Shown here in pieces: positions 7,217 to 59,652 of a stretch of 64,000 nucleotides of DNA; position 1 is the stretch's first letter; each line of letters opens with the position of its first letter. A model generated the notes under the pieces. That model was not told where the DNA came from. It worked only from the letters and a program-made list of their open reading frames with translations, and did no database searches. The stretch is taken from contig JACRJU010000010.1 of the NCBI GenBank assembly GCA_016219925.1, positions 32,147 through 96,146 of the forward strand, given 5' to 3'. Source of the DNA: Candidatus Uhrbacteria bacterium (GTDB lineage: Bacteria > Patescibacteriota > Patescibacteriia > UBA9934 > GWF2-40-263). Both the position numbers and the translations under genes were made by a program.

Positions 7217-8089
7217 ATGACGATTCGAAAAGCCATCATCCCTGTTGCTGGCATGGGCACGCGTTTTTTGCCTGCTGCCAAAGCCCAGCCAAAAGAAATG
7301 CTCCCCGTGGTCGATAAACCGATCATCCAGTATATCGTTGAAGAAGCGGTGCAAAGCGGCATCGAAGAAATCATCTTCGTCACCGCCATCGGTAAACATG
7401 CTATTGAAAACCATTTTGATCGAAACTTCGAATTGGAATACCGCCTTGAACAAAAAGGGAAACTCAAGGAACTTAAAGCCATATCGGAGATCGGCAGACT
7501 CGCCAAATTCGCCTTCGTGCGCCAATCCAAACCCCTTGGTGACGGCCATGCCGTATTAAGCGCCCTCCCCTTTCTCGATTTGCACGAACCGGTCGCGGTC
7601 CTTTTTGGCGATGACATTATCGAAGGCAAAACTCCGGCGCTCAAACAATTGATTGATGTCTATAATAAGTACGGAGATTCAGTCCTCGCGTTACAAAAAG
7701 TGCCAAAAAACATGGTGAACCAATTCGGGGTGGTGGATGGGAAAAAATTATCCAAAACAACGTGGGAGATCAGGGGCTTCGTAGAAAAACCCGACATCAA
7801 GGAAGCTCCAAGCGATTTAATCGCAATCGGACGCTATATCCTGACTCCAAACATTTACACGCTTCTGGAAAAACAAAAACCCGGCAAGGATGGTGAAATC
7901 CGTCTGGCTAACGCGTTTGAGACGCTCCTCAAAAATAACGGAGTCTTGTATGGATGCCACTTTGAAGGAACCTGGCATAACTGCGGCGATAAATTCGGAT
8001 TCGTCAAAGCGCAAATTGAACTGGGCCTTAAACATCCCGATGTTGGTCCGGCTCTCAAAAAATATTTCAAAACCATGAAACCCCTATGA
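7217..8089 (+). CDS. galU: UTP--glucose-1-phosphate uridylyltransferase
   Basis: N-terminal signature KAIIPVAGMGTRFLPAAKAQPKEMLPVVDKPIIQY, a VEKP motif, 290 aa. Confidence 0.9.
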   Translation: MTIRKAIIPVAGMGTRFLPAAKAQPKEMLPVVDKPIIQYIVEEAVQSGIEEIIFVTAIGKHAIENHFDRNFELEYRLEQKGKLKELKAISEIGRLAKFAFVRQSKPLGDGHAVLSALPFLDLHEPVAVLFGDDIIEGKTPALKQLIDVYNKYGDSVLALQKVPKNMVNQFGVVDGKKLSKTTWEIRGFVEKPDIKEAPSDLIAIGRYILTPNIYTLLEKQKPGKDGEIRLANAFETLLKNNGVLYGCHFEGTWHNCGDKFGFVKAQIELGLKHPDVGPALKKYFKTMKPL

Positions 8090-9462
8090 GGAGGACCTCT
8101 TTCAAAAAACTTTCCCTGCTGTTCGCTCTCATCCTGCTTGTCGGTGCAGGATGCACAGGCCCATCGGCCGCGGAAATTTCAGCTACCAAACCCGCCACCA
8201 TTTCCATTTGGCAGGTGTTTGACTCGGAAGAATCGCTCTTGCCAATCATGAACGCTTATCGCGCCATCCATCCCAATATTTCCTTTGAATATCGCCAGCT
8301 TCGTTCAGACGAATACAAAAATGAACTCCTGCGCGCATTTGCGGAAGGAAAAGGCCCAGATGTTTTTGCTATTCATAACACCTGGGTGGGCGAATATGAA
8401 AGTTTGATCGCTCCGTTGCCCGCGTCGCTCCAAATCGGCTATTCCGAAACGCGCGGCACCATCAAAAAAGAAACCATCTACACCTTAAAAGAAGAGCCGA
8501 CGATTTCCCTGCGAGCGCTCAAAAATGATTTCGTGGATGTGGTGTCCAAAGATGTGGTGCGTGCCTACCGCGTCAACCAGAATACCGAACCTCAAGATCG
8601 GATCTTCGGCCTTCCCCTTTCCGTTGACACAATGGCTCTTTACTACAATAAGGATCTGCTCAACGCCGCCAATATCCCTGAACCGCCAACCACATGGACG
8701 CAGTTTCAAGAACAGGTTGGCAAACTCACCAAAATTGGCCAAAACGATACGATCTTACAATCCGGCGCGGCCGTGGGCACGGGAAAAAACATCGAGCGCG
8801 CAATAGATATCTTAAATCTTCTCATGCTCCAAAATGGCGTCGAGATGGTTAGCGACCGTGGATCTGCTATCTTTGCCACAGGATCAGACAAAGAAAATCT
8901 AGCTGCAGATGCTGTGCGCTTCTATACTGATTTCGCCAACCCTCTTAAACAGGTGTACACCTGGAACGACTCTCAACCCAATTCATTTGACGCCTTCGTC
9001 AACGGCAAGGCCGCATTCTTTCTTGGCTATGCTTACCACGCGCCTCTGATTGCCGCACGGTCGCCAAAACTCAACTTCGCCATCGCTCCTGTTCCCCAAA
9101 TCGAAGGAGGAAAAACCGTGAACTACGCAAATTACTGGGTGGAAACCGTTTCACGCCAAACGAAAAATCTTGATACCGCTTGGGATTTCGTTGAGTTCGC
9201 CGCCTCAAAAGATCAGGTTACAAAATATCTCGATCTTGCCAAACGGCCGCCTGCTCGGCGAGCGCTTGTGAGTAGCCAACTTGAAGATGAAACCCTCTCG
9301 ATCTTTGCCTCCCAAGTGCTCACCGCGCAAAGCTGGTATCATGGAAGAGACGCGGGGGCTATGGAACAAGCCTTCATTGACCTCATCGGAGCGACCCTTT
9401 CAGGTTCTGATACACAAGAAATTTTGACGATCACTCAAAATAAAGTGAACCAAACGCTTTAA
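8086..9462 (+). CDS. Extracellular solute-binding lipoprotein (ABC family-1 type); no cognate permease or ATPase is adjacent
   Basis: ATGA overlap with the galU stop. Lipobox LLVGAGC. Length and composition fit sugar-type solute-binding proteins. Confidence 0.6.
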   Translation: MRRTSFKKLSLLFALILLVGAGCTGPSAAEISATKPATISIWQVFDSEESLLPIMNAYRAIHPNISFEYRQLRSDEYKNELLRAFAEGKGPDVFAIHNTWVGEYESLIAPLPASLQIGYSETRGTIKKETIYTLKEEPTISLRALKNDFVDVVSKDVVRAYRVNQNTEPQDRIFGLPLSVDTMALYYNKDLLNAANIPEPPTTWTQFQEQVGKLTKIGQNDTILQSGAAVGTGKNIERAIDILNLLMLQNGVEMVSDRGSAIFATGSDKENLAADAVRFYTDFANPLKQVYTWNDSQPNSFDAFVNGKAAFFLGYAYHAPLIAARSPKLNFAIAPVPQIEGGKTVNYANYWVETVSRQTKNLDTAWDFVEFAASKDQVTKYLDLAKRPPARRALVSSQLEDETLSIFASQVLTAQSWYHGRDAGAMEQAFIDLIGATLSGSDTQEILTITQNKVNQTL

Positions 9463-9467
9463 GCTTT

Positions 9468-10094
9468 ATGCGACGAGCTTTTGCCTTTCTGCTCATCACC
9501 CTTTCCGTTGCGGCTTTGCCGTTTGCTGGATTGGCGTACTCGAGCAACATTTGCAAAGGCCCGACCTGTGATGTCTCCGAGGTGGGACGATTTATGGAAG
9601 GGATTACGCGCGAATGTGGAAACCTGGGCAACTGCTCGATCAATGATATTTTGATGGTGTTTGCCAATGCAGGAAACTTCGCCGTCGGCATTGTGGGAGC
9701 GCTTGTGCTTCTCATGTATGTGATCGGGGGAATGTACATGCTTTCTTCAGCAGGATCTTCGGACCGAGTCGCAAAAGGAAAAAAATATCTCACCATCTCA
9801 ACAACGGGGCTCCTCATTGTCGTCTTTGCTTATATTGGCATTAAGACGCTCGAATCGGTTTTGAGAACAGCCGGAGGCGAGGGTGACTTCGTCGAGGCTT
9901 GCACCGAGTCAACGATCGGCCAGCCTTGCGGACCGTCCAAACAATGTTTTCAAGCTGATGGTGCGTCAAGTGTTTCCTGTATCTCAAACTGTGAAGCTTT
10001 TACTCCAGGGGCGAGTTGCAAAAATGCTTCAAATCCTGCATGTATTTCAGGATTATGCCCTGGAGAAGCCGTGTGTTGTCCTCCAACGCCTTAA
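9468..10094 (+). CDS. Pilin-like two-TM protein (TrbC/VirB2 or T4SS-pilin-like) with a Cys-rich C-terminal extension; paralog 1 of 6
   Basis: Signal peptide, then a hairpin core (GIVGALVLLMYVIGGMYMLSSAGSSDRVAKGKKYLTISTTGLLIVVFAYIG). The tail carries more than 10 Cys. Confidence 0.5.
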   Translation: MRRAFAFLLITLSVAALPFAGLAYSSNICKGPTCDVSEVGRFMEGITRECGNLGNCSINDILMVFANAGNFAVGIVGALVLLMYVIGGMYMLSSAGSSDRVAKGKKYLTISTTGLLIVVFAYIGIKTLESVLRTAGGEGDFVEACTESTIGQPCGPSKQCFQADGASSVSCISNCEAFTPGASCKNASNPACISGLCPGEAVCCPPTP

Positions 10095-10104
10095 TCCCAT
10101 TGCT

Positions 10105-10470
10105 ATGAAACTTTTTTTAAAACGATTAACTCTCCTTCTGTGGATTTGGTCCATGCCCCTTATGGCATTCGCCGCCGACCCGGCAGAAAAAAAATTGTTT
10201 AATCCTCTTGGAACTACGAGCATTCAAGCGGTGATCGCCCGGCTCATCAAAGCTTTGCTTGGACTTAGCGGAAGCATCGCCCTTCTGATGTTTGTGTGGG
10301 GAGGATTCTTGTGGCTTAGCTCTCGAGGGGAAACCAAACAAATCGAAAAAGGGAAAGAAACCATCAAATGGGCCACTTTCGGGCTCGTTATTATTTTTAC
10401 TGCCTACATTTTGGTTGGAGCAATCATTGGTGCGCTGATAAAAGGAACAGCTGTAGAGGCCCCAAGCTAG
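10105..10470 (+). CDS. Pilin-like two-TM protein, paralog 2 of 6
   Basis: Start ATG 10105 (MKLFLKRL signal peptide). Core is GSIALLMFVWGGFLWLSSRGETKQIEKGKETIKWATFGLVIIFTAYIL. Confidence 0.5.
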   Translation: MKLFLKRLTLLLWIWSMPLMAFAADPAEKKLFNPLGTTSIQAVIARLIKALLGLSGSIALLMFVWGGFLWLSSRGETKQIEKGKETIKWATFGLVIIFTAYILVGAIIGALIKGTAVEAPS

Positions 10471-10564
10471 CCGTGTGGATAAGCAGAGTTCTTTCTTCCC
10501 AAAAAAACGAGTAAAATACCTATAACCTTTCAATCATTTAACTTTTAAGGAGGCAACAATTTCT

Positions 10565-11023
10565 ATGACCATGGTACAGAAAAAATATCTCGGTTATGCG
10601 CTGGGAGCCGCCGTAGCCCTGCTCATTGCCGCGCCGATCGTGCTGGGAGGCGCACACAACGCTCTCGCTGCCCCCGGGCCACTTACAAAGGATGAGCTTT
10701 TCGGTGGCAAGGGTAAAACAGGCGATACATTTGCGGCAAATGCCGGACTTGGAAATGCGAACCTGATCGATACGATTTCTTCGATCATTCGCGTAGCTCT
10801 TGGTTTCCTCGGTGTGATTGCAGTGGTGATCATCCTGCTTGGTGGATTCAAGTGGATGACCTCGGGCGGAAACGATACCAAAGTTGGTGAGGCTAAAAAG
10901 CTCATCTTCGCAGGCATCATTGGATTGGTGATTGTGTTATCCGCATACGCGATCGCGAATTTCGTTATCGGCCAAATCGCGGGCGTCACCTCTAATCCTG
11001 TCCCTCCTGTCGGTGCTGGCTAA
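10565..11023 (+). CDS. Pilin-like two-TM protein, paralog 3 of 6
   Basis: AAGGAGG Shine-Dalgarno upstream. Core is GVIAVVIILLGGFKWMTSGGNDTKVGEAKKLIFAGIIGLVIVLSAYAI. Confidence 0.5.
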   Translation: MTMVQKKYLGYALGAAVALLIAAPIVLGGAHNALAAPGPLTKDELFGGKGKTGDTFAANAGLGNANLIDTISSIIRVALGFLGVIAVVIILLGGFKWMTSGGNDTKVGEAKKLIFAGIIGLVIVLSAYAIANFVIGQIAGVTSNPVPPVGAG

Positions 11024-12414: not shown

Positions 12415-13344
12415 TCAGCGCTTCCACCCGTTAGTGGCGTGGGTGATGCGCCGATCAAGGCTCTCGACGCGGTCGAGTTCGACCCGGACCGCGTTGCCCC
12501 ACAGAGTCTGGGGCGGCAGGCCGGGGATCTCGACCAGACTGCCGGTCGGAGCCAGGTAGATGATCTCGATGCGGTCGCGTGGGCCGACCGCCGAGATATA
12601 GAGCTCGTCGTAGGCGGCCGGGGCGACCGCGCTGTACGGGGTGCGGTCCGGACGACCGTCCCCATCGAGATCGGCGTAGACCGTCTCGATCGAGCCATCC
12701 GCATTGCCGATCGGGATGGCAACCCCGTTGCGCTTCACGAGAACCCGCGAGAATTGGGGGTTTCGGTGGGTGTGCCAGCTGACCCCACTGGCAAGCCCGA
12801 AGACTTGCAAGTAGGGGCCAACCACCTCGAAGGTCGTGGCGGCGTATGCCCCTGGGGTCGGGATGACCCTGTAGGGCGCGCCACCGACCATCATCGTGGA
12901 CGGTGGTAGGCCTGCGGGCGGACGGTGGTAGGCCTGCGGCTCGGCTGGTTGAGCCTTGCCGTCCTTCGCCTTCCGATCGCGGAGCGTCCGAAGACGCGCC
13001 TTGATCTGCTGCCTGGCTGTGCCAGCGGCAGGCAGCTCCGGCTGCTTGGCGTCCGGCACTGCCTGCTGGGACGCGAGCTTGGCTTTGGTCGCCTCGAGCT
13101 CCTGACGGAGCCGATCGACTTCGGCCTTGAGCCCGCTCTCGCCGGCTTTGAGCCGCGCCTCCAGGATCTTCACGTTCTGATCCTGGATGCACAGCAGTTG
13201 CTTGAGGCGGGCACTCGAGTCGGTTCCGGCGTAGCGGGCCTCGCAGAATGCGACGGCCTGCTTCGCTTCCTTCGACTCTTCAGCGTGCAGGGTGGCGGGG
13301 ACGAACAGGAACAGGGCGGCCGCGATGGCCATTTCGAACTTCAT
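12415..13344 (-). CDS. High-GC cassette A, gene 2: secreted coiled-coil protein with a beta-rich C-terminal domain carrying a DxDxDG loop
   Basis: Signal peptide MKFEMAIAAALFLFVPATLHA-EE. Heptad-like region LEARLKAGESGLKAEVDRLRQELEATKAKL. Contains DLDGDGRPD. AAGGAGA Shine-Dalgarno 5 nt upstream. Codons are almost all G/C-ending. Confidence 0.6.
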   Translation of the reverse strand: MKFEMAIAAALFLFVPATLHAEESKEAKQAVAFCEARYAGTDSSARLKQLLCIQDQNVKILEARLKAGESGLKAEVDRLRQELEATKAKLASQQAVPDAKQPELPAAGTARQQIKARLRTLRDRKAKDGKAQPAEPQAYHRPPAGLPPSTMMVGGAPYRVIPTPGAYAATTFEVVGPYLQVFGLASGVSWHTHRNPQFSRVLVKRNGVAIPIGNADGSIETVYADLDGDGRPDRTPYSAVAPAAYDELYISAVGPRDRIEIIYLAPTGSLVEIPGLPPQTLWGNAVRVELDRVESLDRRITHATNGWKR

Positions 13345-13419: not shown

Positions 13420-14043
13420 CTACTTGCGGTGAACTCGGAGGAGCTCGTTGAGGTCGCGGCGGTTGCACGCCGCTTCCTCTGCGGGGTTGGCGGGCGGGCG
13501 ACCACCAGGGCACTGGCTCGTGCTCGCGGGCGCGAGCGCTTGCGGAGGTGGCGGGCCGTAGTAACCCGGGGCGACCGCTTCACCGAGCGGCGGGAGGTAG
13601 CCTCTGGCTCCTGCCCGCCATCCAGCCTCGATCATGGTCGTCTCCTGGCTGGCTCCCGGATAGTAGACAGCCTGACCGTACGGCCCGTAGCCGCCGGCGG
13701 CGTAGGGGTAGGCCCCCATGCCGTACGGCCCGTAAGCGCCGTAGTAGCCCGTGTACCCGGAGGTCACCTGACCTCCGCGGGTGCTCACCTGCGTGGGCAC
13801 CCCCTTGTCAACCGACGCGCGGGCCGTTGCGGCCGCGCGCTCGGCCGCATCGCCGTCATGACGCGTACGCTCGAGCTGGTCGGCGGCGGCAAGGAGCGCT
13901 GCCGCTCCCCCGGTGGTGGCCAGATCCTGGTGGACCTGGACCGAACCGATGACCCGACCGCTTGCGTCGGTGAGGTCGCGCTTGAGCGCGACGCTCGCGC
14001 ATCCCGTGAGGGCGGCGAGCACGATGGCGAGGATGGTCTTCAT
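13420..14043 (-). CDS. High-GC cassette A, gene 1: lipoprotein with a Gly/Tyr/Pro-rich low-complexity region
   Basis: MKTILAIVLAALTGC lipobox. GGAG lies 6 nt before ATG 14043 (alternative ATG at 14055). Contains GYTGYYGAYGPYGMGAYPYAAGGYGPYG. Confidence 0.6.
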   Translation of the reverse strand: MKTILAIVLAALTGCASVALKRDLTDASGRVIGSVQVHQDLATTGGAAALLAAADQLERTRHDGDAAERAAATARASVDKGVPTQVSTRGGQVTSGYTGYYGAYGPYGMGAYPYAAGGYGPYGQAVYYPGASQETTMIEAGWRAGARGYLPPLGEAVAPGYYGPPPPQALAPASTSQCPGGRPPANPAEEAACNRRDLNELLRVHRK

Positions 14044-14125
14044 CTGCTTCTCCATGTCGACTCGCCTGCGGCTGCCGACTCAATTGCCCTGAAAAGGACG
14101 GTTTGTCCCAATTTGGGAACGTAGA

Positions 14126-15599: not shown

Positions 15600-17600
15600 C
15601 TACTTGCAGCCGAAGGCCTGACGACCTTCATAGCTAAGCGCCGCGCAGTCGACTCCGTTGGTGTGCGTGTGCGGCTTGGAAGCCGAACGCGCGCTGGACG
15701 AAGTCGGGGGCGTCGTGGCGAAGGGGTCCATCGTGTGGTGACCCACGAACCACGGAACGCTCACCGCGACCATGAGTGCGCAGAGGAAGACCGCGAGGTG
15801 GCCCACCAGGGGGTTACTCCCTTGAGTCACGTTCAGGATCGATCCTGACTGCACCCGTGTCTGTGCGAGCCGGCGCACGAGCCAGTACCCGGGCAGGTAC
15901 ACGAGCGTGAAGAGGACCGCGCTCGCAACCCACTGATGAGTCCCGAGGAAGCTGAGGCTTGCACCCCAGGCCGCGACAGTCGCGCCCCAGACGGCTTGCG
16001 GCCATCCGTGACGGATCATCCAGTCTGCGGCGATGATCCCGATCGTCACCAGCCACCCGTACTGCGCGCCCCGAAGAGCAAGCAGTTGGGCCTTGGCCGG
16101 CGCGCCCGCGACCTTGAAGCCCATCCCGATGCACACGCCGACGAAGGCGAGGCCCAGGATGACGACGCGTGCGCTGAGCGACACACCGACCTCCGGGATG
16201 AGGCCCAGAGCGATCAGGTACGCCGGCATCAGCATGAAGGTGAACCTCCAGCCGAATTCGGCGAGCCAATCGGCGGGCCACCCGAGCACACTGACAACCA
16301 GGGGGTGGAGCAGACGCTGCCAGATCCGCAGCGTAAAAAACATGATGATCAGCACCGTCGCGCAGATGATCGCGCGCAGGCTGTGGTACATGCTCGGGGC
16401 ACTGAAGAGGCTCGAGAGCATCCACCAGAACGCCGTGAGGAACATCACCACGGTCGCCAGGTTGAACACCACGATCCCGACCGCCGAGCCGTAGAGCAGG
16501 GCTTTGAGGGTCCCGCTCATGGCGCCGCGGTTGTGCCAGGCGCTCGAAGCGCCGCGCAGGGCCTTGTGCCAGAGCGTGAGCTCCGCACCCAAGGCCGTGT
16601 CGAACGCGGCGATGATGTCGTCGAGATCTTCGGGGTTGAACCGGTCCTCGGGGGTCGCACGCGGATTGTAGTACTCCGCGAGCGTCCTGAGAAACGGCAC
16701 GCCCTTCTTGTCGACGACGTCCTTGACGATGTCCTCGCGCAGGGCGTACTGCAGGGCCGTTCCCTGCCGCACGCTGCGGCTGATGAGCAGGAAGAAGCGC
16801 CGAACCTCGGGTCCGACCGCCTCCCACCACTCGGCGGGCTTCCTCAGAAGACCCTCGAGGATCTTGAGCTCTACGGCGCTGACGCGCTGGGTATCCCCCA
16901 TCTGCGCGATCGCTTCCGCGAGCTTCAGGACCTCGTGCGGGAAGGACTCGGCCGGCACACGCTCGGTGCGAGGCTGTTGGCCCTTGCCACCGCCGACCTG
17001 CTTGGTCGTGGCTTTGTGGGTGTCATCCCAGACGCTCTTGTAGAGCGCCCAGGTCGGATCCAGGATGACGGGCACCTGGTCGGCACCCACCCGAATCTTG
17101 CCGTCAGAGTCCCGGGCCGGAACGAAGATCTTACCCGGAACGAGCCGGCTGACAACAACCCAGTCAAGAGTCTGGTTGGCATCAGCGTCTGCGACGCCGG
17201 GGTCGGAGCGGGCCGCGTCGACCTCGCGATCGATCTGGCTCGCGGCATCCGCGTACCCGGTGAACACGCCCAACAGGGCGTGTGGGCCAACCTCCTTGAG
17301 GAGGAGCTTGGCCTCGCGAACGACCGGACGGGTGTCGCCCGGAAGAATCCGCTCGACGAAGTCGCTCTTCTTGAGCAAGGCCGCGACGGCCGAGCCCGCG
17401 AGTGGGAGGGTGAACCCGGGCATGGTGCGCGCCAGGGCCATGACCGGCCCGGCCGCTCCGAAGATGCCCTTGAGCGACCGCTTGGCGATCGCCTTGCCGG
17501 ACTCTCCAGCACCCGCACCCTCGGTGAGCTCGCGCTCGAGGTGCTGGTGCACGGCCTGTTCGGCGGCCTCTTCGGCCATCAATCGAAGAAACTCGTTCAT
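15600..17600 (-). CDS. High-GC cassette B: 666-aa protein with a soluble N-terminal half (about 350 aa) and a polytopic C-terminal half (roughly 8-10 hydrophobic segments); function unknown
   Basis: AGGAG lies 6 nt before ATG 17600. Strong G/C-ending codon bias. Five long shadow ORFs overlap it, as expected from stop-codon depletion. The C-terminal tail has two Cys (VDCAALSYEGRQAFGCK). Confidence 0.6.
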   Translation of the reverse strand: MNEFLRLMAEEAAEQAVHQHLERELTEGAGAGESGKAIAKRSLKGIFGAAGPVMALARTMPGFTLPLAGSAVAALLKKSDFVERILPGDTRPVVREAKLLLKEVGPHALLGVFTGYADAASQIDREVDAARSDPGVADADANQTLDWVVVSRLVPGKIFVPARDSDGKIRVGADQVPVILDPTWALYKSVWDDTHKATTKQVGGGKGQQPRTERVPAESFPHEVLKLAEAIAQMGDTQRVSAVELKILEGLLRKPAEWWEAVGPEVRRFFLLISRSVRQGTALQYALREDIVKDVVDKKGVPFLRTLAEYYNPRATPEDRFNPEDLDDIIAAFDTALGAELTLWHKALRGASSAWHNRGAMSGTLKALLYGSAVGIVVFNLATVVMFLTAFWWMLSSLFSAPSMYHSLRAIICATVLIIMFFTLRIWQRLLHPLVVSVLGWPADWLAEFGWRFTFMLMPAYLIALGLIPEVGVSLSARVVILGLAFVGVCIGMGFKVAGAPAKAQLLALRGAQYGWLVTIGIIAADWMIRHGWPQAVWGATVAAWGASLSFLGTHQWVASAVLFTLVYLPGYWLVRRLAQTRVQSGSILNVTQGSNPLVGHLAVFLCALMVAVSVPWFVGHHTMDPFATTPPTSSSARSASKPHTHTNGVDCAALSYEGRQAFGCK

Positions 17601-51796: not shown

Positions 51797-52720
51797 ATGA
51801 AATCTCTTCAAGCCTTTATCACGGATTTTTTGGAATATCTGGAAGTCGAGCGTGGTCGCAGTGCGCGGACGATTCGCAACTACGATTTTTATTTGCGCCG
51901 GTTTGCGCAGTTTGCTGGAAATATCCTTCCACCAAAGATTACGCGTGAAACCGTTCATCGCTATCGGTTATTTTTGAATCGTCTGGAACAAGGCCGTCAA
52001 GAAGTGACGCTCAAAAAAAGTACGCAGAATTATCATCTCATTGCCTTGCGCTCATTTTTGAAATATCTTTCGCGTCATGATGTTGCGAGCCTGCCCGCTG
52101 AACAGATCGAACTTGCCAAGCAGTCTAAGCGCACCGTGGATTTTCTCGAAGCTGATGAACTTGCCCGACTGTTGGCGATGCCGCAGAAAATCCATTCCGG
52201 TTTGATCGCCCTGCGTGACAAAGCGATTTTGGAGTTGTTGTTTTCCGCAGGTTTGCGCGTGAGCGAACTCACCGGACTCAAGATCGAGCAGATCAATCTC
52301 AAACGTGATGAGTTTACCGTGCGCGGCAAAGGCGACAAGCCGCGGCTGTGCTTTTTGTCTGATTCGGCAAAAGAAGCCATCAGAGGCTATCTTGAGAGAC
52401 GCCGCGATCCTTCACCGTTTTTGTTTGTTTCTCATGATCGGGCCAAAAGTGGTCGTAAAGACGGCGGACCACTCACCCCTCGCTCAGTTGAACGCTCGGT
52501 TGAACACTATGCGGTGAGCGCTGGCATCACAAAAAAAATTACTCCTCATACGCTTCGTCATACTTTCGCTACGGATTTACTCATGAGCGGCGCGGATATT
52601 CGTTCGGTGCAGTCGATGCTCGGGCATGAATCCATTACGACAACTCAGGTTTACACCCACATCACGAACAGCCAGATGAAGGAAGTTCACAAACGGTTTC
52701 ATGGGAAACAAAAGAGTTAG
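51797..52720 (+). CDS. Tyrosine recombinase, XerC/XerD family
   Basis: N-terminal SAM-like FLEYLEVERGRSARTIRNY. Catalytic HTLRHTFAT and GHESITTTQVYTH. Confidence 0.8.
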   Translation: MKSLQAFITDFLEYLEVERGRSARTIRNYDFYLRRFAQFAGNILPPKITRETVHRYRLFLNRLEQGRQEVTLKKSTQNYHLIALRSFLKYLSRHDVASLPAEQIELAKQSKRTVDFLEADELARLLAMPQKIHSGLIALRDKAILELLFSAGLRVSELTGLKIEQINLKRDEFTVRGKGDKPRLCFLSDSAKEAIRGYLERRRDPSPFLFVSHDRAKSGRKDGGPLTPRSVERSVEHYAVSAGITKKITPHTLRHTFATDLLMSGADIRSVQSMLGHESITTTQVYTHITNSQMKEVHKRFHGKQKS

Positions 52721-52858: not shown

Positions 52859-53194
52859 ATGATCGACCTGACAGCCGCTACCTTCGACGGGGTCGTCAAG
52901 AAACACCCCGTCATTCTCGTCGACTTCTGGGCGGCTTGGTGTGCACCTTGCCGCGCCATGATGCCGGTCATCAGTGGGCTCGCGGAGGCCATGCCCGATC
53001 TGGTGATCGGCAAGGTCGACATCGACCCCGAGCTCGAGTTGGCGACGCGCTTTAGGATCAGCGCGATCCCCACGCTCATGTTCATCGTCGAGGGACACGA
53101 GGTTGCGCGCCTCACTGGGGCCACGTCGTTGCCCAAGCTCATCGCTTGGGTGCGCGAGCACCAGGGCGCCGTGGAGACGAACCCGAACACGTAG
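52859..53194 (+). CDS. High-GC cassette C: thioredoxin-family protein with a WCAPC active site
   Basis: GGAGGAGAGG Shine-Dalgarno before ATG 52859. Contains VDFWAAWCAPCRAM and ISAIPTLM. G/C-ending codons, with overlapping shadow ORFs. Confidence 0.75.
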   Translation: MIDLTAATFDGVVKKHPVILVDFWAAWCAPCRAMMPVISGLAEAMPDLVIGKVDIDPELELATRFRISAIPTLMFIVEGHEVARLTGATSLPKLIAWVREHQGAVETNPNT

Positions 53195-54187: not shown

Positions 54188-54245
54188 GGTCTCTTGGTAG
54201 GGTACAGATACGACCTGGCATAAGGCTCGGTCAAGGGAGGCCATC

Positions 54246-55226
54246 ATGGCACACGTGACCCATCGCGATCTGCTCTTTCCCATCGTCGTGAAGTTCTGGG
54301 GGGTCCGCGGATCCTTCCCGACCAGCGACGTCCGGATCGGCGGGCACACGACATGCCTGACGCTCCAGTTCCCCGACCAACTCATCATCTTCGACACGGG
54401 TTCGGGGATGATCGACCTTGGCAACCATCTGCTCGAGCCGGCGCTCGTGCCTGGAACGACCCTCAAAGACATCGAGGTGTTCACCAAGGTCTGGCTCGGC
54501 CAGACTGGCAACAAGCCCGAGGATCTCGGGCGCGCTCTGCAGGAGCGGTTCCAGGGCAAGAACGGCGGGGTCAACGCGACCGTGATCCACAGCCACGTCC
54601 ACAAGGATCACCTCGACGGGCTCACGGCGTTCAAGCCCGTGTTCCGTCCGGACACGGAGCTCACCTTCATCGGCTCGCGCCACAATGATCTGACGATCGA
54701 GCAGGTCATGGAGCGCTTCGTGTTCACCCCGCCGGTGTTTCCGGTGCCCTGGAAGGTCCTGGGGTCGAGGCGCACCATGCGCGAGATCGCTCCGTCGGGC
54801 GACACCTTCACGATCCCCTGCGCGGTCGGCGACGACATCCGTGTGCGGATGCTGCCGATGAACCACCCCAACCAAGCCTACGGGTACCGGTTCGAGTGGG
54901 GCGGTCGTGTGATCGCGGTCACGCTCGACCACGAGCACGGTCACGACTTCGACCGCAACGTCGTCGAGCTCGCGGACAACGCCGACCTGTGGATCACCGA
55001 GGCGCAGTACACCGATGCGCAGTACGCGCGGTGCAAGGGCTTCGGCCACATCAGCGAGACCGCGGCCGCCGCGCACGCCAAGGCGGCCAAGCCCCGGCTC
55101 GTCTACACGACCCACCACGATCCGGACGCCGGCTTCGACGATGTCCAGCAGATCGCGCGCACCATCCAGGAGTTCTCGGGCGTCGAAGCTCGGTACGCCT
55201 GGCAGGGTAGCGAGGTCCACGTCTGA
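54246..55226 (+). CDS. High-GC cassette D: MBL-fold metallo-hydrolase (Lactamase_B_2-like)
   Basis: GGAGG lies 5 nt before the ATG. HSHVHKDHLDG (HxHxDH), a downstream NHP, and TTHHDP. The antisense 329-aa ORF is repetitive low-complexity. Confidence 0.75.
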   Translation: MAHVTHRDLLFPIVVKFWGVRGSFPTSDVRIGGHTTCLTLQFPDQLIIFDTGSGMIDLGNHLLEPALVPGTTLKDIEVFTKVWLGQTGNKPEDLGRALQERFQGKNGGVNATVIHSHVHKDHLDGLTAFKPVFRPDTELTFIGSRHNDLTIEQVMERFVFTPPVFPVPWKVLGSRRTMREIAPSGDTFTIPCAVGDDIRVRMLPMNHPNQAYGYRFEWGGRVIAVTLDHEHGHDFDRNVVELADNADLWITEAQYTDAQYARCKGFGHISETAAAAHAKAAKPRLVYTTHHDPDAGFDDVQQIARTIQEFSGVEARYAWQGSEVHV

Positions 55227-56262: not shown

Positions 56263-56411
56263 GACGCCGACACCGATACTAAAGACCGCGACGATGACAA
56301 GCGTCTGGAGCCATCATGAATCTGAAATGGGCAAAATCTGATCAATGATAAAAAACCTAAGCCCGAGCGCAAGAGCGAGGTACAGAAGGATTCTTAAAAA
56401 GATCATAGATG

Positions 56412-56488
56412 TGGTGGCCCGGGAGGGACTTGAACCCCCAACCCTGTGCTTAGAACGCACCTGCTCTATCCAGTTGAGCTACCGGGCC
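56412..56488 (-). tRNA. tRNA-Arg (anticodon TCT), CCA encoded
   Basis: Hand fold of the reverse complement: acceptor GGCCCGG/CCGGGCC, D arm GCTC/GAGC, anticodon loop GTTCTAA, T arm GGGGG-TTCAAGT-CCCTC. 77 nt. Confidence 0.8.
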
Positions 56489-56544
56489 AAATTCAGTAAA
56501 CTGAATCGGAAGCGTAGATAAATTTTATCACAAAGTCAACCCAT

Positions 56545-57132
56545 ATGCGTACGCGCGTGATTATTGTTCATGGGTGGGGAGGTTTTCCAGAGGAAGGCTG
56601 GTTCCCTTGGCTGAAACAAACATTGGAACAGAAAGGATATACGGTTGAAGTTCCTCACATGCCTCATCCCGATTCTCCGGAAATTTTCCCGTGGGTTTCA
56701 ACACTCGCTCAAGTGGTTGGAGATATTGATGAGCACACGTTTTTTGTTGGGCATAGTATCGGCTGTCAGACGATTTTGCGTTTTTTGGAATCTCTGCCAG
56801 CGGGTCAGACGGCCGCAGGGGCAGTCTTTGTGGCGCCATGGCTTGCTCTTCAGCATTTAGGTGAAGAAGAAATGGAAATTGCCAAGCCATGGTTGCAGAC
56901 GCAGATTGATCTTGTGAAGGTCTTAGAGCATCTTCCAAAGAGCGCGGCGATTTTTTCTGACAATGATCCGTTTGTTTCTATTGAACAGCAGGATATTTTT
57001 CGTGATGAGCTTCATTCGGAAATTGTAATCGAACACAGGCTTGGACACATGAGCGGAGAGGATGGAGTGTCAGAGCTTCCTTCAGTTTTGGTTCATCTTA
57101 TTTCGTTATTTCCGTTGGAGTCGTCGTCTTGA
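56545..57132 (+). CDS. Alpha/beta hydrolase, YdeN/RBBP9-like serine hydrolase
   Basis: IIVHGWGG and the nucleophile elbow GHSIGC; 195 aa. Confidence 0.65.
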   Translation: MRTRVIIVHGWGGFPEEGWFPWLKQTLEQKGYTVEVPHMPHPDSPEIFPWVSTLAQVVGDIDEHTFFVGHSIGCQTILRFLESLPAGQTAAGAVFVAPWLALQHLGEEEMEIAKPWLQTQIDLVKVLEHLPKSAAIFSDNDPFVSIEQQDIFRDELHSEIVIEHRLGHMSGEDGVSELPSVLVHLISLFPLESSS

Positions 57133-57173
57133 TTTTTTTTTCTTTCGTTGCTATTCTCTTCGCGTTCGCGCAT

Positions 57174-57249
57174 GGCGGCCATGGTGAAACGGTTATCACA
57201 GCAGGTTGTGGTCCTGTCGTTACGGGTTCGATTCCCGTTGGCCGCCCCA
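57174..57249 (+). tRNA. tRNA-His (anticodon GTG) with encoded G-1 and CCA
   Basis: Hand fold: G-1, acceptor GCGGCCA/TGGCCGC, anticodon stem GCAGG/CCTGT with loop TTGTGGT, T arm ACGGG-TTCGATT-CCCGT, discriminator C. Confidence 0.85.
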
Positions 57250-57282
57250 CACAAAACCCCCGGCTTTTGCCTGGGGTTTTGT
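57249..57282 (+). terminator. Terminator hairpin after tRNA-His
   Basis: ACAAAACCCC / GGGGTTTTGT 10-bp stem. Confidence 0.55.
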
Positions 57283-57413
57283 GTGAGAGATAAGAATCGA
57301 ACCCGTAACGACGATCAACAACACGGGTACGATGCTTGAAGTGAGCGAGCGGAGAGGCCGAGCGGAGCTCGGACTATCCCGAGCGAGCGAGAGCAATATG
57401 GGCGCCAGCCCAT

Positions 57414-57434
57414 ATTCCCGTTGGCCGCCCCACA
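57414..57434 (+). repeat. Exact 21-nt direct repeat of the tRNA-His 3' end (T-loop to CCA plus 2 nt)
   Basis: ATTCCCGTTGGCCGCCCCACA occurs at 57231-57251 inside the tRNA and again at 57414-57434. The second copy is embedded in a 63-nt near-perfect palindrome at 57417-57479. Confidence 0.85.
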
Positions 57435-57522
57435 AAATAGACCCCAGCATGCTGGGGTCTATTTTGTTTGGCCAACGGGAGGTGAAGGGGGCATGTCTCT
57501 TTTCTCTTCATTCTATCCACAC

Positions 57523-57551
57523 TTGACACCATTTTTTCCTTCAGGCATACT
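57523..57551 (+). promoter_or_regulatory. Promoter of high-GC cassette E
   Basis: TTGACA (57523-57528), N17, CATACT (57546-57551). Confidence 0.5.
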
Positions 57552-57694
57552 TCTGCGGGTCTGCTTGTGAGGTGGCTATTTCAGCCAAAATTGCAGGCAT
57601 CCCGGCTGGCCGGATAGCCAGAGCCAGGCCAAACCGGATCGGTTTCCGGAAAGGCCAAACACCAGAAGCCCCAATGGGGCAACAGAGGCTACAG

Positions 57695-58732
57695 ATGAGG
57701 AACCTGTTTCAGATCGCGGTGGAGAATCTCGGCATCGAGAAGCGTCGCGTCGACATCAACGGCGTCACCGTCACGGCCATCAAGGGCTCGCCCGACAACA
57801 TCGCGCGGGTCATCGGCACCGCCCTGCGCGAGGAGCAGTACGACCTCAGCAACCTGATCGGCATGGGCATCTCCCGCGACGGGCAGATCCACCTGATCGG
57901 CTTCGACCCGGACAACGGCGGCAAGATCTCCAAGGCCGAGCTGCCCGAGAACGAGCTCGGGGGGCTCTACCTCGACGGCTTCGACTATGCGCACTTCGTC
58001 GGCTCGATGAAGGACGGCATCGTCGTCAGCGCGTTCGCCAAGGGCGTCCAGGCGACCCCGCAGAAGGGCCAGGCGCTGGACACCTTCGTCAAGGCCGTCT
58101 TCGCGGACGGCAACGTCATCGGCGCCGAGGACACCACCAACACGGTGCTGCTCATCGGCCGCAAGGGCGACCGCGTGCTGTTCGCGCTCGACACCGAGAA
58201 GCCGGACCTGTTCATGCAGGTGACGACGCCGCAGATGATCGGCGAGCCGCGCTACGCGCTGGTCGACCAGCAGACGCTGCTCATCGCCGAGGCCGGGACC
58301 GACCAGGTCTACGCCACCACCGCGCAGGAGCTCAAGACGCTCTTCGAGACCGGCGTGGAGCCGACCTGGCAGATGGCCGCGCTCAAGGGCCTCAGGATCG
58401 AGGACATCTCGCTCGGCATCGGCGACACCAACACCGTGATCGTCACCGCCATCCAGGGCCGCCAGCGCAAGCTGATCCCGACCTGGGCCGGCTGGAAGCC
58501 GACCAATGAGGGCGAGCAGAAGTTCCTCATGAACCCCAGCTACGCCGACGGCGTCGAGTCCGGCACGACCGCCCCGATCGTCCGCACCACGAGCAGCACC
58601 TACGTCGCGGTCGACGGCAACGGCGGCACCTTCCCGCGCCTCACCATCGGGACGCCCGAGGACATCAACCACCGCCTCGCGGTCATGGTCAAGAAGGCCG
58701 AGACCGGCGGCTACGCCAACCTGGCCCTGTAG
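57695..58732 (+). CDS. High-GC cassette E: 345-aa soluble protein with repeated beta-strand-like segments; function unknown
   Basis: AGAGG lies 6 nt before ATG 57695 (the listed ORF starts at GTG 57572, and ATG 57674 is also in frame). Codons are almost exclusively ATC, AAG, AAC, TTC, GAC and GAG. A long antisense shadow ORF is present. Confidence 0.55.
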   Translation: MRNLFQIAVENLGIEKRRVDINGVTVTAIKGSPDNIARVIGTALREEQYDLSNLIGMGISRDGQIHLIGFDPDNGGKISKAELPENELGGLYLDGFDYAHFVGSMKDGIVVSAFAKGVQATPQKGQALDTFVKAVFADGNVIGAEDTTNTVLLIGRKGDRVLFALDTEKPDLFMQVTTPQMIGEPRYALVDQQTLLIAEAGTDQVYATTAQELKTLFETGVEPTWQMAALKGLRIEDISLGIGDTNTVIVTAIQGRQRKLIPTWAGWKPTNEGEQKFLMNPSYADGVESGTTAPIVRTTSSTYVAVDGNGGTFPRLTIGTPEDINHRLAVMVKKAETGGYANLAL

Positions 58733-58776
58733 GCCGCCCCCCCACAACGTCAGCGCACACTCGCGCTGACACGCTC

Positions 58777-58822
58777 GCACCGCTTCTCGGAGCTCCTCCT
58801 CCAAGCGGTGCGTTTTTATTTT
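58777..58822 (+). terminator. Intrinsic terminator of cassette E
   Basis: GCACCGCTT / AAGCGGTGC stem followed by GTTTTTATTTT. Preceded by a second hairpin, GTCAGCGC/GCGCTGAC, at 58749-58770. Confidence 0.7.
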
Positions 58823-58881
58823 CTGTCTAGATTTTCGACAACACTTCCCCTTTTTGCATCTGCACGCTAATGTGACACTAT

Positions 58882-59652
58882 ATGCGTATGCATTATTCGC
58901 CCGATGTCATGGCCGGACTTAGGGCTTTCGGACTTGACGAGAAAGATGTCAAAGTCTATTTGGCAGGCCTTGAGCTTGGACCATCGAGTGTGCTTGAACT
59001 TTCGCGCAGAACACAACTCGCTCGCACAACGCTCTATCCGATTCTGGAGCGTCTCGAACGACAAGGGGTCTTTCGTGTTGGGCTTGAGAAAAAAACAACC
59101 CTCTACATCGCCGAGCCCCCAGCGGTACTCCAGCGCCTGTTGGATGAGCGCGAGGGGGCCTTTGCCAAGGCGTTTCCTCTTTTGGAAGGACTGCGAGCTA
59201 CAGCGGACGATGCGCCCGGGGTGACGATCTACGAGGGATCGGATGGATTCAAGCGACTTTGGAAACAACTCCTGCGTAGTGGAGTTAAGGAATATCGATT
59301 GATCACCACCGGCGTTGGGCTCCTTGATTATGTGAAGGAACCGTATCTCATCAAACAAGTGATTGCGGAACGGCTTGAGCGCGGCATCAAAAGCAAGCAA
59401 CTCATCCCCATGAGCCGTGACGCTAAAAAAATTGTCGAAAAAGATCCCTCTGAACTTCGAGAATCTCGATTTTTGCCCGCGGGCACAACCCTCCCAGCAA
59501 CCGTGATCATTTTTGCCGGCAACATCGCCTTTATTACAACCCGAAAAGAAAACACGATGATCGTTCTGACCTCCGGCGATATTGCTCTGACTTACGCAAC
59601 GCTATTTGATTTGATTTGGGATAAGGCCAATCAAAACCATATCGAGTTTTAA
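58882..59652 (+). CDS. TrmB-family transcriptional regulator
   Basis: N-terminal wHTH GLDEKDVKVYLAGLELGPSSVLELSRRTQLARTTLYPILERLERQGV. Confidence 0.7.
   Translation: MRMHYSPDVMAGLRAFGLDEKDVKVYLAGLELGPSSVLELSRRTQLARTTLYPILERLERQGVFRVGLEKKTTLYIAEPPAVLQRLLDEREGAFAKAFPLLEGLRATADDAPGVTIYEGSDGFKRLWKQLLRSGVKEYRLITTGVGLLDYVKEPYLIKQVIAERLERGIKSKQLIPMSRDAKKIVEKDPSELRESRFLPAGTTLPATVIIFAGNIAFITTRKENTMIVLTSGDIALTYATLFDLIWDKANQNHIEF

Follow-up and report, generated by a model that had tools for sequence, protein, structure and literature searches.

A fast-evolving orphan gene of Candidatus Uhrbacteria with codons that nearly all end in C or G

How does a single gene come to be written almost without A- and T-ending codons in a genome whose preferences run the other way? 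The question is raised by gene X, an open reading frame (ORF) at 57695-58732 on the forward strand of a 64,000-nucleotide stretch (the window) from a Candidatus Uhrbacteria bacterium (GenBank assembly GCA_016219925.1, contig JACRJU010000010.1, positions 32,147 to 96,146). The original prediction, made from the sequence of the window, had described X as part of a mobile cassette bracketed by repeats derived from the neighboring tRNA-His gene. We compared X with its homologues in codon usage, genomic position and expression signals. The results point instead to a native, probably strongly expressed single-gene unit whose synonymous sites would be under sustained selection, an explanation that we favor at roughly even confidence.

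Codon usage of gene X and its homologues

The product of gene X, 345 amino acids in length, is identical to the NCBI protein HZA85_01900 of Candidatus Uhrbacteria. The G+C contents of its first, second and third codon positions (GC1, GC2 and GC3) were 0.61, 0.41 and 0.986. Third positions comprised 213 C, 128 G, 5 T and no A; A- or T-ending codons made up 5 of 345, none of them A-ending. The original prediction had reported a 345-residue frame with a series of strand-like segments and a near-exclusive use of ATC, AAG, AAC, TTC, GAC and GAG. The frame and its segments were found as described, and the counts bore out the codon choice (ATC 25/25, AAG 17/17, GAC 22/22, GAG 20/20, AAC 13/15, TTC 11/12). 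GC3 of X lay 9.9 standard deviations above the value of 38 ordinary window genes (0.498 ± 0.049), and its effective number of codons was 27.9 compared to 51.5 ± 2.7 in the same genes. Host counts were 253 AAA and 69 AAG, 244 GAA and 100 GAG, 182 GAT and 89 GAC. With its exclusive use of AAG, GAG and GAC gene X is thus opposite to the preferences of the genome. The longest run of A and T was 3 nt in X and 11 nt in polA.

The GC anomaly begins and ends at the borders of the coding sequence (CDS), i.e. the compositional boundaries are those of the CDS. The promoter region of X has 45% GC and keeps a T-tract. The amino-acid composition as well as GC1 and GC2 are host-like without a GC shift. The fraction of Gly, Ala, Arg and Pro (GARP) was 0.27-0.30 for X and 0.255 ± 0.031 for ordinary genes; that of Phe, Tyr, Met, Ile, Asn and Lys (FYMINK) was 0.23-0.27 and 0.251 ± 0.032, respectively. 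In this respect, too, the earlier description of a protein not especially rich in Ala, Gly or Arg was correct.

To collect the X family, 1.84 billion cluster representatives were searched exhaustively with HMMER. This yielded 33 members of 224-443 amino acids, most of them between 333 and 369; a word-indexed protein search with the family profile recovered 3 members. All members with a name or a genomic context were Patescibacteria, the named ones being labelled Uhrbacteria, Parcubacteria or Patescibacteria. Clusters at 90% identity contained one or two X members each. In the following W denotes the window copy, and L001-L020 and the P0014 contig are the related loci that were compared (Table 1).

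Table 1. GC3 of X and of neighboring genes at the loci compared
Locus	GC3 of X	GC3 of neighbors
L001	0.997 (1 A/T-ending codon in 338)	0.46 (one low-GC gene); adjacent oxidoreductase gene 0.91
Window (W)	0.986	0.35-0.59
L008	0.984	0.33-0.52
L004	0.977	0.47-0.49
L017	0.975	0.46-0.71; MBL 0.89
L007	0.953	0.32-0.46
L005	0.846	0.41-0.47
L002	0.732	0.34-0.72
L020	about 0.62	0.28-0.64
L011	0.585	no context genes

Six lineages (W, L001, L004, L007, L008 and L017) keep GC3 of X between 0.95 and 0.997. AAG, GAG and CAG are almost exclusive across the X lineages, with at most one A-ending codon per gene. Choices within the G/C-ending set are consistent between lineages as well: GGC is used far above GGG and CGC far above CGG, while the two Ala codons stand at about 1:1. 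At conserved residues with four- or sixfold degeneracy, codon identity between homologues equalled the chance expectation from codon frequencies (e.g. 38 vs 38.1 and 33 vs 32.9). The synonymous sites among X homologues are saturated, and the GC3 bias must therefore be maintained continuously. The few A/T-ending codons accumulate in codons 2-17 (12/96 vs 34/2009, p = 4e-7), as is usual where selection favors an open initiation region.

In all cases with flanking DNA, the window and its relatives share one gene order: PNPase - NYN - S15 - MFS - DsbA - XerC - (MBL) - tRNA-Arg - (Ser-hydrolase - HD) - tRNA-His - X - TrmB - PolA - HolA - S20 - RmuC. The part from tRNA-Arg to S20 around X recurs in L002, L005, L007, L008, L017, L020 and the P0014 contig. 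No empty X site was seen among the relatives, as W, L001, L002, L007, L008, L017, L020 and the P0014 contig all carry the gene. Because X has this position in the gene order of other Patescibacteria contigs as well, it is a resident gene of the host lineage and not an imported one. The original prediction had taken X for a cassette gene and had named membership in a common housekeeping family of the host lineage as counter-evidence; a resident gene of that lineage comes close to this.

Protein identities between the window and L017 were 82% for XerC, 72% for TrmB, 70% each for PolA and S20, 67% for the MBL-fold hydrolase and 57% for HolA, compared to 25% for X. L007 and L008 shared 65% in the Ser-hydrolase, 67% in HD and 22% in X, the window and L005 70% in PolA and 31% in X. 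For the X protein the rate of divergence is two to three times that of its neighbors. Silent or partial X copies, which antigenic variation might draw upon, were not found in the window by tblastn.

Two further observations concern the contigs that carry X. Independent assemblies (L001, L005, L007, L008, L009 and L010) often end ~30-230 nt from the gene; contig ends beside a GC-rich hypervariable gene suggest strain heterogeneity or a drop in coverage. The contig of L005 and L012 (CAYJVQ010000057.1) shows the Patescibacteria-type synteny, with PolA next after X, and carries the conserved promoter of X; it belongs to a metagenome-assembled genome labelled 'uncultured Gammaproteobacteria' and is probably mis-binned.

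The transcription unit and its predicted product

Judged by its signals, the region 57523-58822 is a self-contained single-gene transcription unit (Table 2). The original prediction had begun the region at 57523, which coincides with the first base of the -35 hexamer. The X promoter is the sole promoter-like site in 57100-58950 and unique in the window; a promoter common to X and the other GC-rich genes was not found. It is nearly invariant among homologous loci, being kept in 8-9 of the nine loci aligned. The loci whose X proteins are closest share (T)ATCCACACTTGACA-N3-T5-N5-CAGGCATACT-(T/A)CGCCGAGTTCGCT, the promoters of L002, L007, L008 and L017 are recognizable variants, and L011 retains little past TTGAC. 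A genome scan with the promoter pattern returned the L005 contig again and nothing else. A metagenome scan gave L013, which is identical to L007, and two chance matches (L014 and L015); scans of viral contigs revealed neither an X relative nor a copy of the promoter.

Table 2. Predicted features of the X locus and the adjoining tRNA-His gene
Feature	Position	Strand	Remarks
tRNA-His(GTG) gene	57175..57249	+	ARAGORN; Rfam tRNA, 61.3 bits
Direct repeat copy 1, 3' T-arm part and acceptor end of tRNA-His, ATTCCCGTTGGCCGCCCCACA	57231..57251	+	
Terminator hairpin after tRNA-His	57248..57285	+	inverted repeat, terminator-like site
Inverted 19-nt T-arm fragment of tRNA-His	57294..57312	-	100% complementary to 57216-57234
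Direct repeat copy 2 of tRNA-His 3' end	57414..57434	+	second hairpin follows at 57427-57472
Promoter, sigma-70-type	57523..57551	+	-35 TTGACA, 17-nt spacer with T-tract, -10 CATACT
5' untranslated region (UTR), ~137 nt	57558..57694	+	start inferred from -10 hexamer
5'-proximal leader hairpin	57562-57599	+	
22-nt leader element CCGGCTGGCCGGATAGCCAGAG	57602-57623	+	
Leader hairpin	57627-57656	+	
Leader hairpin	57668-57680	+	
Shine-Dalgarno sequence AGAGG	57684-57688	+	6 nt before ATG
CDS of X, orphan beta-rich protein	57695..58732	+	345 aa, GC3 0.986, signal peptide not evident
First 3' UTR hairpin, GTCAGCGC-acactc-GCGCTGAC	58749..58770	+	read from sequence
Intrinsic terminator	58776..58822	+	17-nt arms 58776-58792 and 58796-58812, then TTTTTATTTT

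The leader had been described as a chain of hairpins, and folding agreed with this: its minimum free energy was -57.9 kcal/mol (z = -3.26), and none of 200 shuffled sequences was as stable. The window, L004 and L017 share without a mismatch a 22-nt hairpin element of the leader, CCGGCTGGCCGGAWAGCCAGAG, at just 25-35% identity of their X proteins (BLASTP). L001 and L004 retain two leader hairpins of the window, with one compensatory pair. A hairpin close to the inferred 5' end was present in each X leader inspected, and the remaining leader length ranged from ~40 to 137 nt between loci. Because of this variable length the leader is not one conserved riboswitch-like RNA. A cmscan of 56300-59000 against Rfam (E ≤10) gave tRNAs alone above the gathering score and nothing credible within the leader. 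Downstream of the X stop codon, L001, L005 and L007 have hairpins analogous to the first 3' UTR hairpin, and hairpin terminators were found after X in all loci with a 3' flank (all but L008).

Pfam and a profile search of PDB sequences gave no match for any member of the X family, and the PADLOC defence hidden Markov models matched none of 29 X family members consistently at E ≤1. AlphaFold with an alignment of 29 sequences produced a confident model with a predicted local distance difference test score (pLDDT) of 95.2 and a predicted TM-score (pTM) of 0.92; from the single sequence the model was unusable (pLDDT 43). The beta-rich model contains four helices interspersed between the strands. 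Foldseek gave TM-scores of about 0.3 against PDB and of at most 0.33 against BFVD. When compared with beta-propellers (TolB, YncE, Sec12 and SGL-type lactonases), 170-207 of the 345 residues aligned at a root-mean-square deviation of 3.5-5 Å. Yet the TM-score of these pairs was ~0.3, X lacks blade sequence repeats, none being detectable at the profile level by hhalign, and its helices are interspersed in the model. Of the propeller or repeat-beta fold suggested by the original prediction, the beta-rich character thus stood, whereas the likeness to a propeller was loose and internal repeats were not detected. G31, G58, R160 and R297 are invariant in the family and W225 and T251 nearly so. The isoelectric point varies from 4.7 to 9.2, and an N-terminal signal sequence is not evident in the X sequence. 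Taken together X is an orphan protein, beta-rich and apparently soluble, whose predicted fold bears a loose likeness to a propeller.

Forces acting on the synonymous sites

The codon bias of X is a property of the gene and not of a foreign donor. As it occurs in every lineage examined in spite of saturated synonymous sites, a continuing gene-specific force holds the C- and G-ending codons in place. This force would be selection on synonymous sites tied to expression. It could act on decoding, which would proceed by Watson-Crick pairing with G34 and C34 tRNAs alone, or on the mRNA, which without A/U tracts would resist decay. A strongly transcribed X message would be stabilized further by its 5' and 3' hairpins. 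The host-like composition of X and its saturated synonymous sites argue against a recent transfer from a high-GC donor. A general AT-to-GC bias of mutation or conversion is disfavored because the amino acids of the fast-evolving X should then have shifted also.

X is not the only gene of this kind. In the window a thioredoxin gene (52859-53194, +) and an MBL-fold hydrolase gene (54246-55226, +) have a GC3 of 0.87 and 0.90. In L016 both orthologues have 0.85 (thioredoxin 7452-7772, MBL 9200-10177), and the MBL orthologue of L017 has 0.89 (10001-10975). In other Patescibacteria contigs the orthologous proteins are 50-73% identical to those of the window; the amino-acid composition of thioredoxin and MBL is mildly shifted from that of the host. 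That these orthologues share the bias in other lineages counts for selection on synonymous sites.

Several points weigh against this explanation. The bias of X is not in the direction of ribosomal-protein genes as classic translational selection predicts; the two genes used in this comparison are unbiased, with a GC3 of 0.59 for S20 and of 0.46-0.58 for S15 (in relatives). Avoidance of A-ending codons is atypical of tRNA-adaptation models, and fast divergence is unusual for a very abundant protein. Finally, the extreme bias is not a feature of every family member, as L011 and L020 demonstrate, although GC3 of X in L020 is nonetheless ~0.3 above that of its neighbors.

An alternative, if an unlikely one, is GC-biased gene conversion at a recombination hot spot, where allelic exchange would drive both the fixation of AT-to-GC changes and the rapid change of X. 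The conserved flanks of such a hot spot would be the promoter and tRNA-His on one side and the terminator and trmB on the other, with a hypervariable locus between them, an arrangement we likewise hold to be improbable. A proposed source of GC3 heterogeneity in bacteria is biased gene conversion (Lassalle et al. 2015, PMC4450053), which is the closest concept in the literature. X fits it in that an elevated GC3 occurs at a hypervariable locus that looks prone to recombination: the gene is by far the most divergent of a neighborhood with conserved flanks, its clusters at 90% identity hold one or two members each, and contigs often end beside it. The reported effects of biased gene conversion in bacteria amount to a few percent of GC3 and not to +0.5; the shift of X, +0.3 to +0.55, is far larger. 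In addition, it stops at the CDS borders with the promoter keeping its T-tracts, and the amino acids and GC1/GC2 are unshifted despite the rapid change of the protein. The MBL orthologues have the same bias (GC3 0.85-0.90), but at 67-73% identity they are not hypervariable. The non-random choice within the G/C-ending set also counts against conversion.

X, thioredoxin, the MBL-fold hydrolase and, in L001, the FAD oxidoreductase could alternatively form a codon-defined regulon devoid of A- and T-ending codons. Translation of its genes would continue when starvation, oxidative or sulphur stress, or toxins that cleave tRNA or mRNA deplete the U34 tRNAs or their modifications. We rate this as quite unlikely. 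In its favor, the bias is common to a few conserved genes that are transcribed separately and have redox-type domains, X has no A-ending codon at all, these genomes do contain C34 tRNA genes (Ser-CGA, Ala-CGC, Arg-CCT), and genes for PIN and Fic toxins are found in the same neighborhoods. The unbiased ribosomal-protein genes would also fit a condition-specific class better than a growth-related one. On the other hand, the idea is purely inferential and membership of X in a stress regulon a guess; independence of U34 tRNAs leaves the avoidance of T-ending codons unexplained. Transcripts tunable by tRNA modification and toxin-driven tRNA depletion are described in mycobacteria, in cases that involve one or a few codons. 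The resemblance to such codon-biased stress genes lies in a small gene class with a codon set distinct from that of the genome and with redox-type genes among its members. X differs in that A- and T-ending codons are removed wholesale and in that none of the present observations ties it to a stress response. If X, thioredoxin and MBL did constitute a native Patescibacteria class written in C/G-ending codons alone, and as such translatable or stable as mRNA when the decoding or decay machinery is compromised, for which we see a small chance, X would be its extreme, fast-evolving member with up to 337 of 338 G/C-ending codons. To our knowledge a regulatory use of synonymous sites at such a scale has not been described in bacteria.

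The tRNA-His repeats and comparison with known systems

That X is a high-GC cassette acquired horizontally and inserted at tRNA-His, with att repeats derived from the tRNA as its borders, as the original prediction proposed, is very improbable in view of the repeats themselves. The claimed copy of the tRNA-His 3' end is real: 21 nt are exactly duplicated between 57231-57251 and 57414-57434, with 0 such duplications expected by chance. Furthermore, 57414-57437 matches the native 3' flank of tRNA-His in L002 at 24 of 24 bases. However, the two real repeats enclose 162 nt, all of them upstream of the X promoter, and not X. The third 'repeat' (58726-58748, +) was rejected; it consists of the stop codon and the start of the conserved 3' UTR. 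Its alignment requires a 2-nt indel, and its score was attained in 72 of 1000 dinucleotide and 58 of 1000 codon shuffles (p≈0.06-0.07), so that it did not pass the shuffle test set by the original prediction. L002 and L007 have similar words (CCGCAACA...) after the stop codon, and tRNA-His of L007 is on the opposite strand.

The fragments beside tRNA-His look like scars of duplication or inversion of the tRNA gene itself and not like cassette boundaries. The inverted fragment at 57294-57312 is read as a decayed remnant of a tRNA-His copy on the opposite strand. The gene lies opposite to X in L001, L007 and L008 and on the strand of X in the window, L002, L017 and L020. In L020, an Uhrbacteria locus, 80 nt comprising the tRNA-His 3' end and terminators are perfectly duplicated with a spacing of 179 nt compared to 183 nt in the window; the duplication (9735-9993) surrounds a GC-rich insert of ~100 nt that opens with an inverted T-arm fragment as in the window. 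Homology between the two inserts was not convincing. L002 has a direct repeat of ~105 nt (about 7443-7545 and 7603-7705) between tRNA-His and the X promoter, each copy opening with GTTCGCTTCAGAAA, the wording of the 5' end of the L001 X leader.

The compositional contrast of X with its host is strong and, besides the duplication, insertions into the tRNA-His-X interval may be cited for a cassette. In L001 Fic/Doc-type toxin-antitoxin-like genes and an FAD/NAD oxidoreductase gene (GC3 0.91) lie between tRNA-His and X (120-2056), and in L004, a short contig without the tRNA, Fic/Doc-type toxin-antitoxin-like genes lie upstream of X (82-700). Because of these inserts the interval appears to be an insertion hot spot in which X itself is fixed. 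Three GC-rich orphan genes of the window (12415-13344, 13420-14055 and 15600-17600, all on the minus strand), without a match in Pfam, have a GC3 of 0.82-0.85 and a GARP of 0.32-0.46. Unlike X, their amino-acid composition is GC-shifted and they may thus be genuinely foreign. One has a signal-peptide-like N-terminus, one is lipoprotein-like and one is 666 aa long; directly upstream of the block are four small tandem genes that match the T4SS pilin family (PF18895; 10565-12316, +).

The unit has no integrase. In 57250-58822 X is the sole protein-like ORF, the rest being short overlapping ORFs or antisense shadow. The nearest Phage_integrase gene (51797-52720), beyond the tRNA genes, is the conserved XerC-like gene, syntenic and 79-82% identical in relatives. 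An intI-like gene was not present among the Pfam-scanned neighbors, no attC model being run, and the 3' hairpins with their T-run are read as terminators. X occupies the same slot at every locus with flanking sequence, its named homologues are all Patescibacteria and none was found on viral contigs. Marks of a high-GC donor are absent as well: those of the 33 representatives that have a name or a context are all Patescibacteria, GARP and FYMINK are host-like and the synonymous sites are saturated.

A full-length antisense ORF exists opposite X (57689-58804, -, 371 aa), but that an overlapping antisense gene imposes the GC3 pattern has a close to negligible probability and was rejected, because antisense position 1 is sense position 3 and a gene lacking A-ending codons automatically leaves no antisense stop; an antisense gene would moreover forbid TTA, CTA and TCA alone and not all A-/T-ending codons, and the MBL gene, where A-ending codons are near-absent too, has the same kind of shadow ORF (54231-55220, -, 329 aa).

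Heterogeneity of codon usage within bacterial genomes is usually ascribed to horizontal transfer or to mild translational selection. X matches neither pattern, being syntenic, lineage-restricted and host-like in composition with a GC3 of 0.95-0.997 in several lineages, compared to 0.3-0.6 in their ordinary genes. A literature search for GC3 or codon-usage anomalies in the Candidate Phyla Radiation, Patescibacteria or Uhrbacteria found nothing relevant. What is new is a codon bias that is both extreme and gene-specific in a fast-evolving orphan, with a minority chance of a new regulatory use of synonymous sites. X is a clean natural test case for forces on synonymous sites alone in small-genome, slow-growing symbionts. 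Its nearly invariant expression signals and fast-evolving sequence form a combination typical of interaction-relevant proteins. In practice, composition-based filters for horizontal gene transfer or contamination would wrongly drop genes like X, and assemblies tend to break beside it.

With tRNA-targeted integrative islands of the tyrosine-integrase type, which are delimited by attL and attR derived from the 3' end of the tRNA, the X locus shares the adjoining tRNA gene, an exact 21-nt duplication and an interval that takes insertions. It differs from them by repeats that enclose 162 nt upstream, the absence of an integrase, its synteny and an apparently vertical inheritance. A further comparison is with E. 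coli ompA and the S-layer gene slpA of Lactobacillus, which are strongly expressed, codon-biased and monocistronic with stabilizing hairpins in the 5' UTR. Unlike these X has no evident signal peptide or secretion signal, and its bias opposes that of the genome (AAG, GAG and CAG over AAA, GAA and CAA) and is absent from ribosomal-protein genes. What it shares with them is a promoter close to consensus, a 5' UTR that is long and structured with a 5'-proximal hairpin, a good Shine-Dalgarno sequence, a strong terminator and an extreme codon bias; as in S-layer genes, its protein diverges fast behind conserved expression signals.

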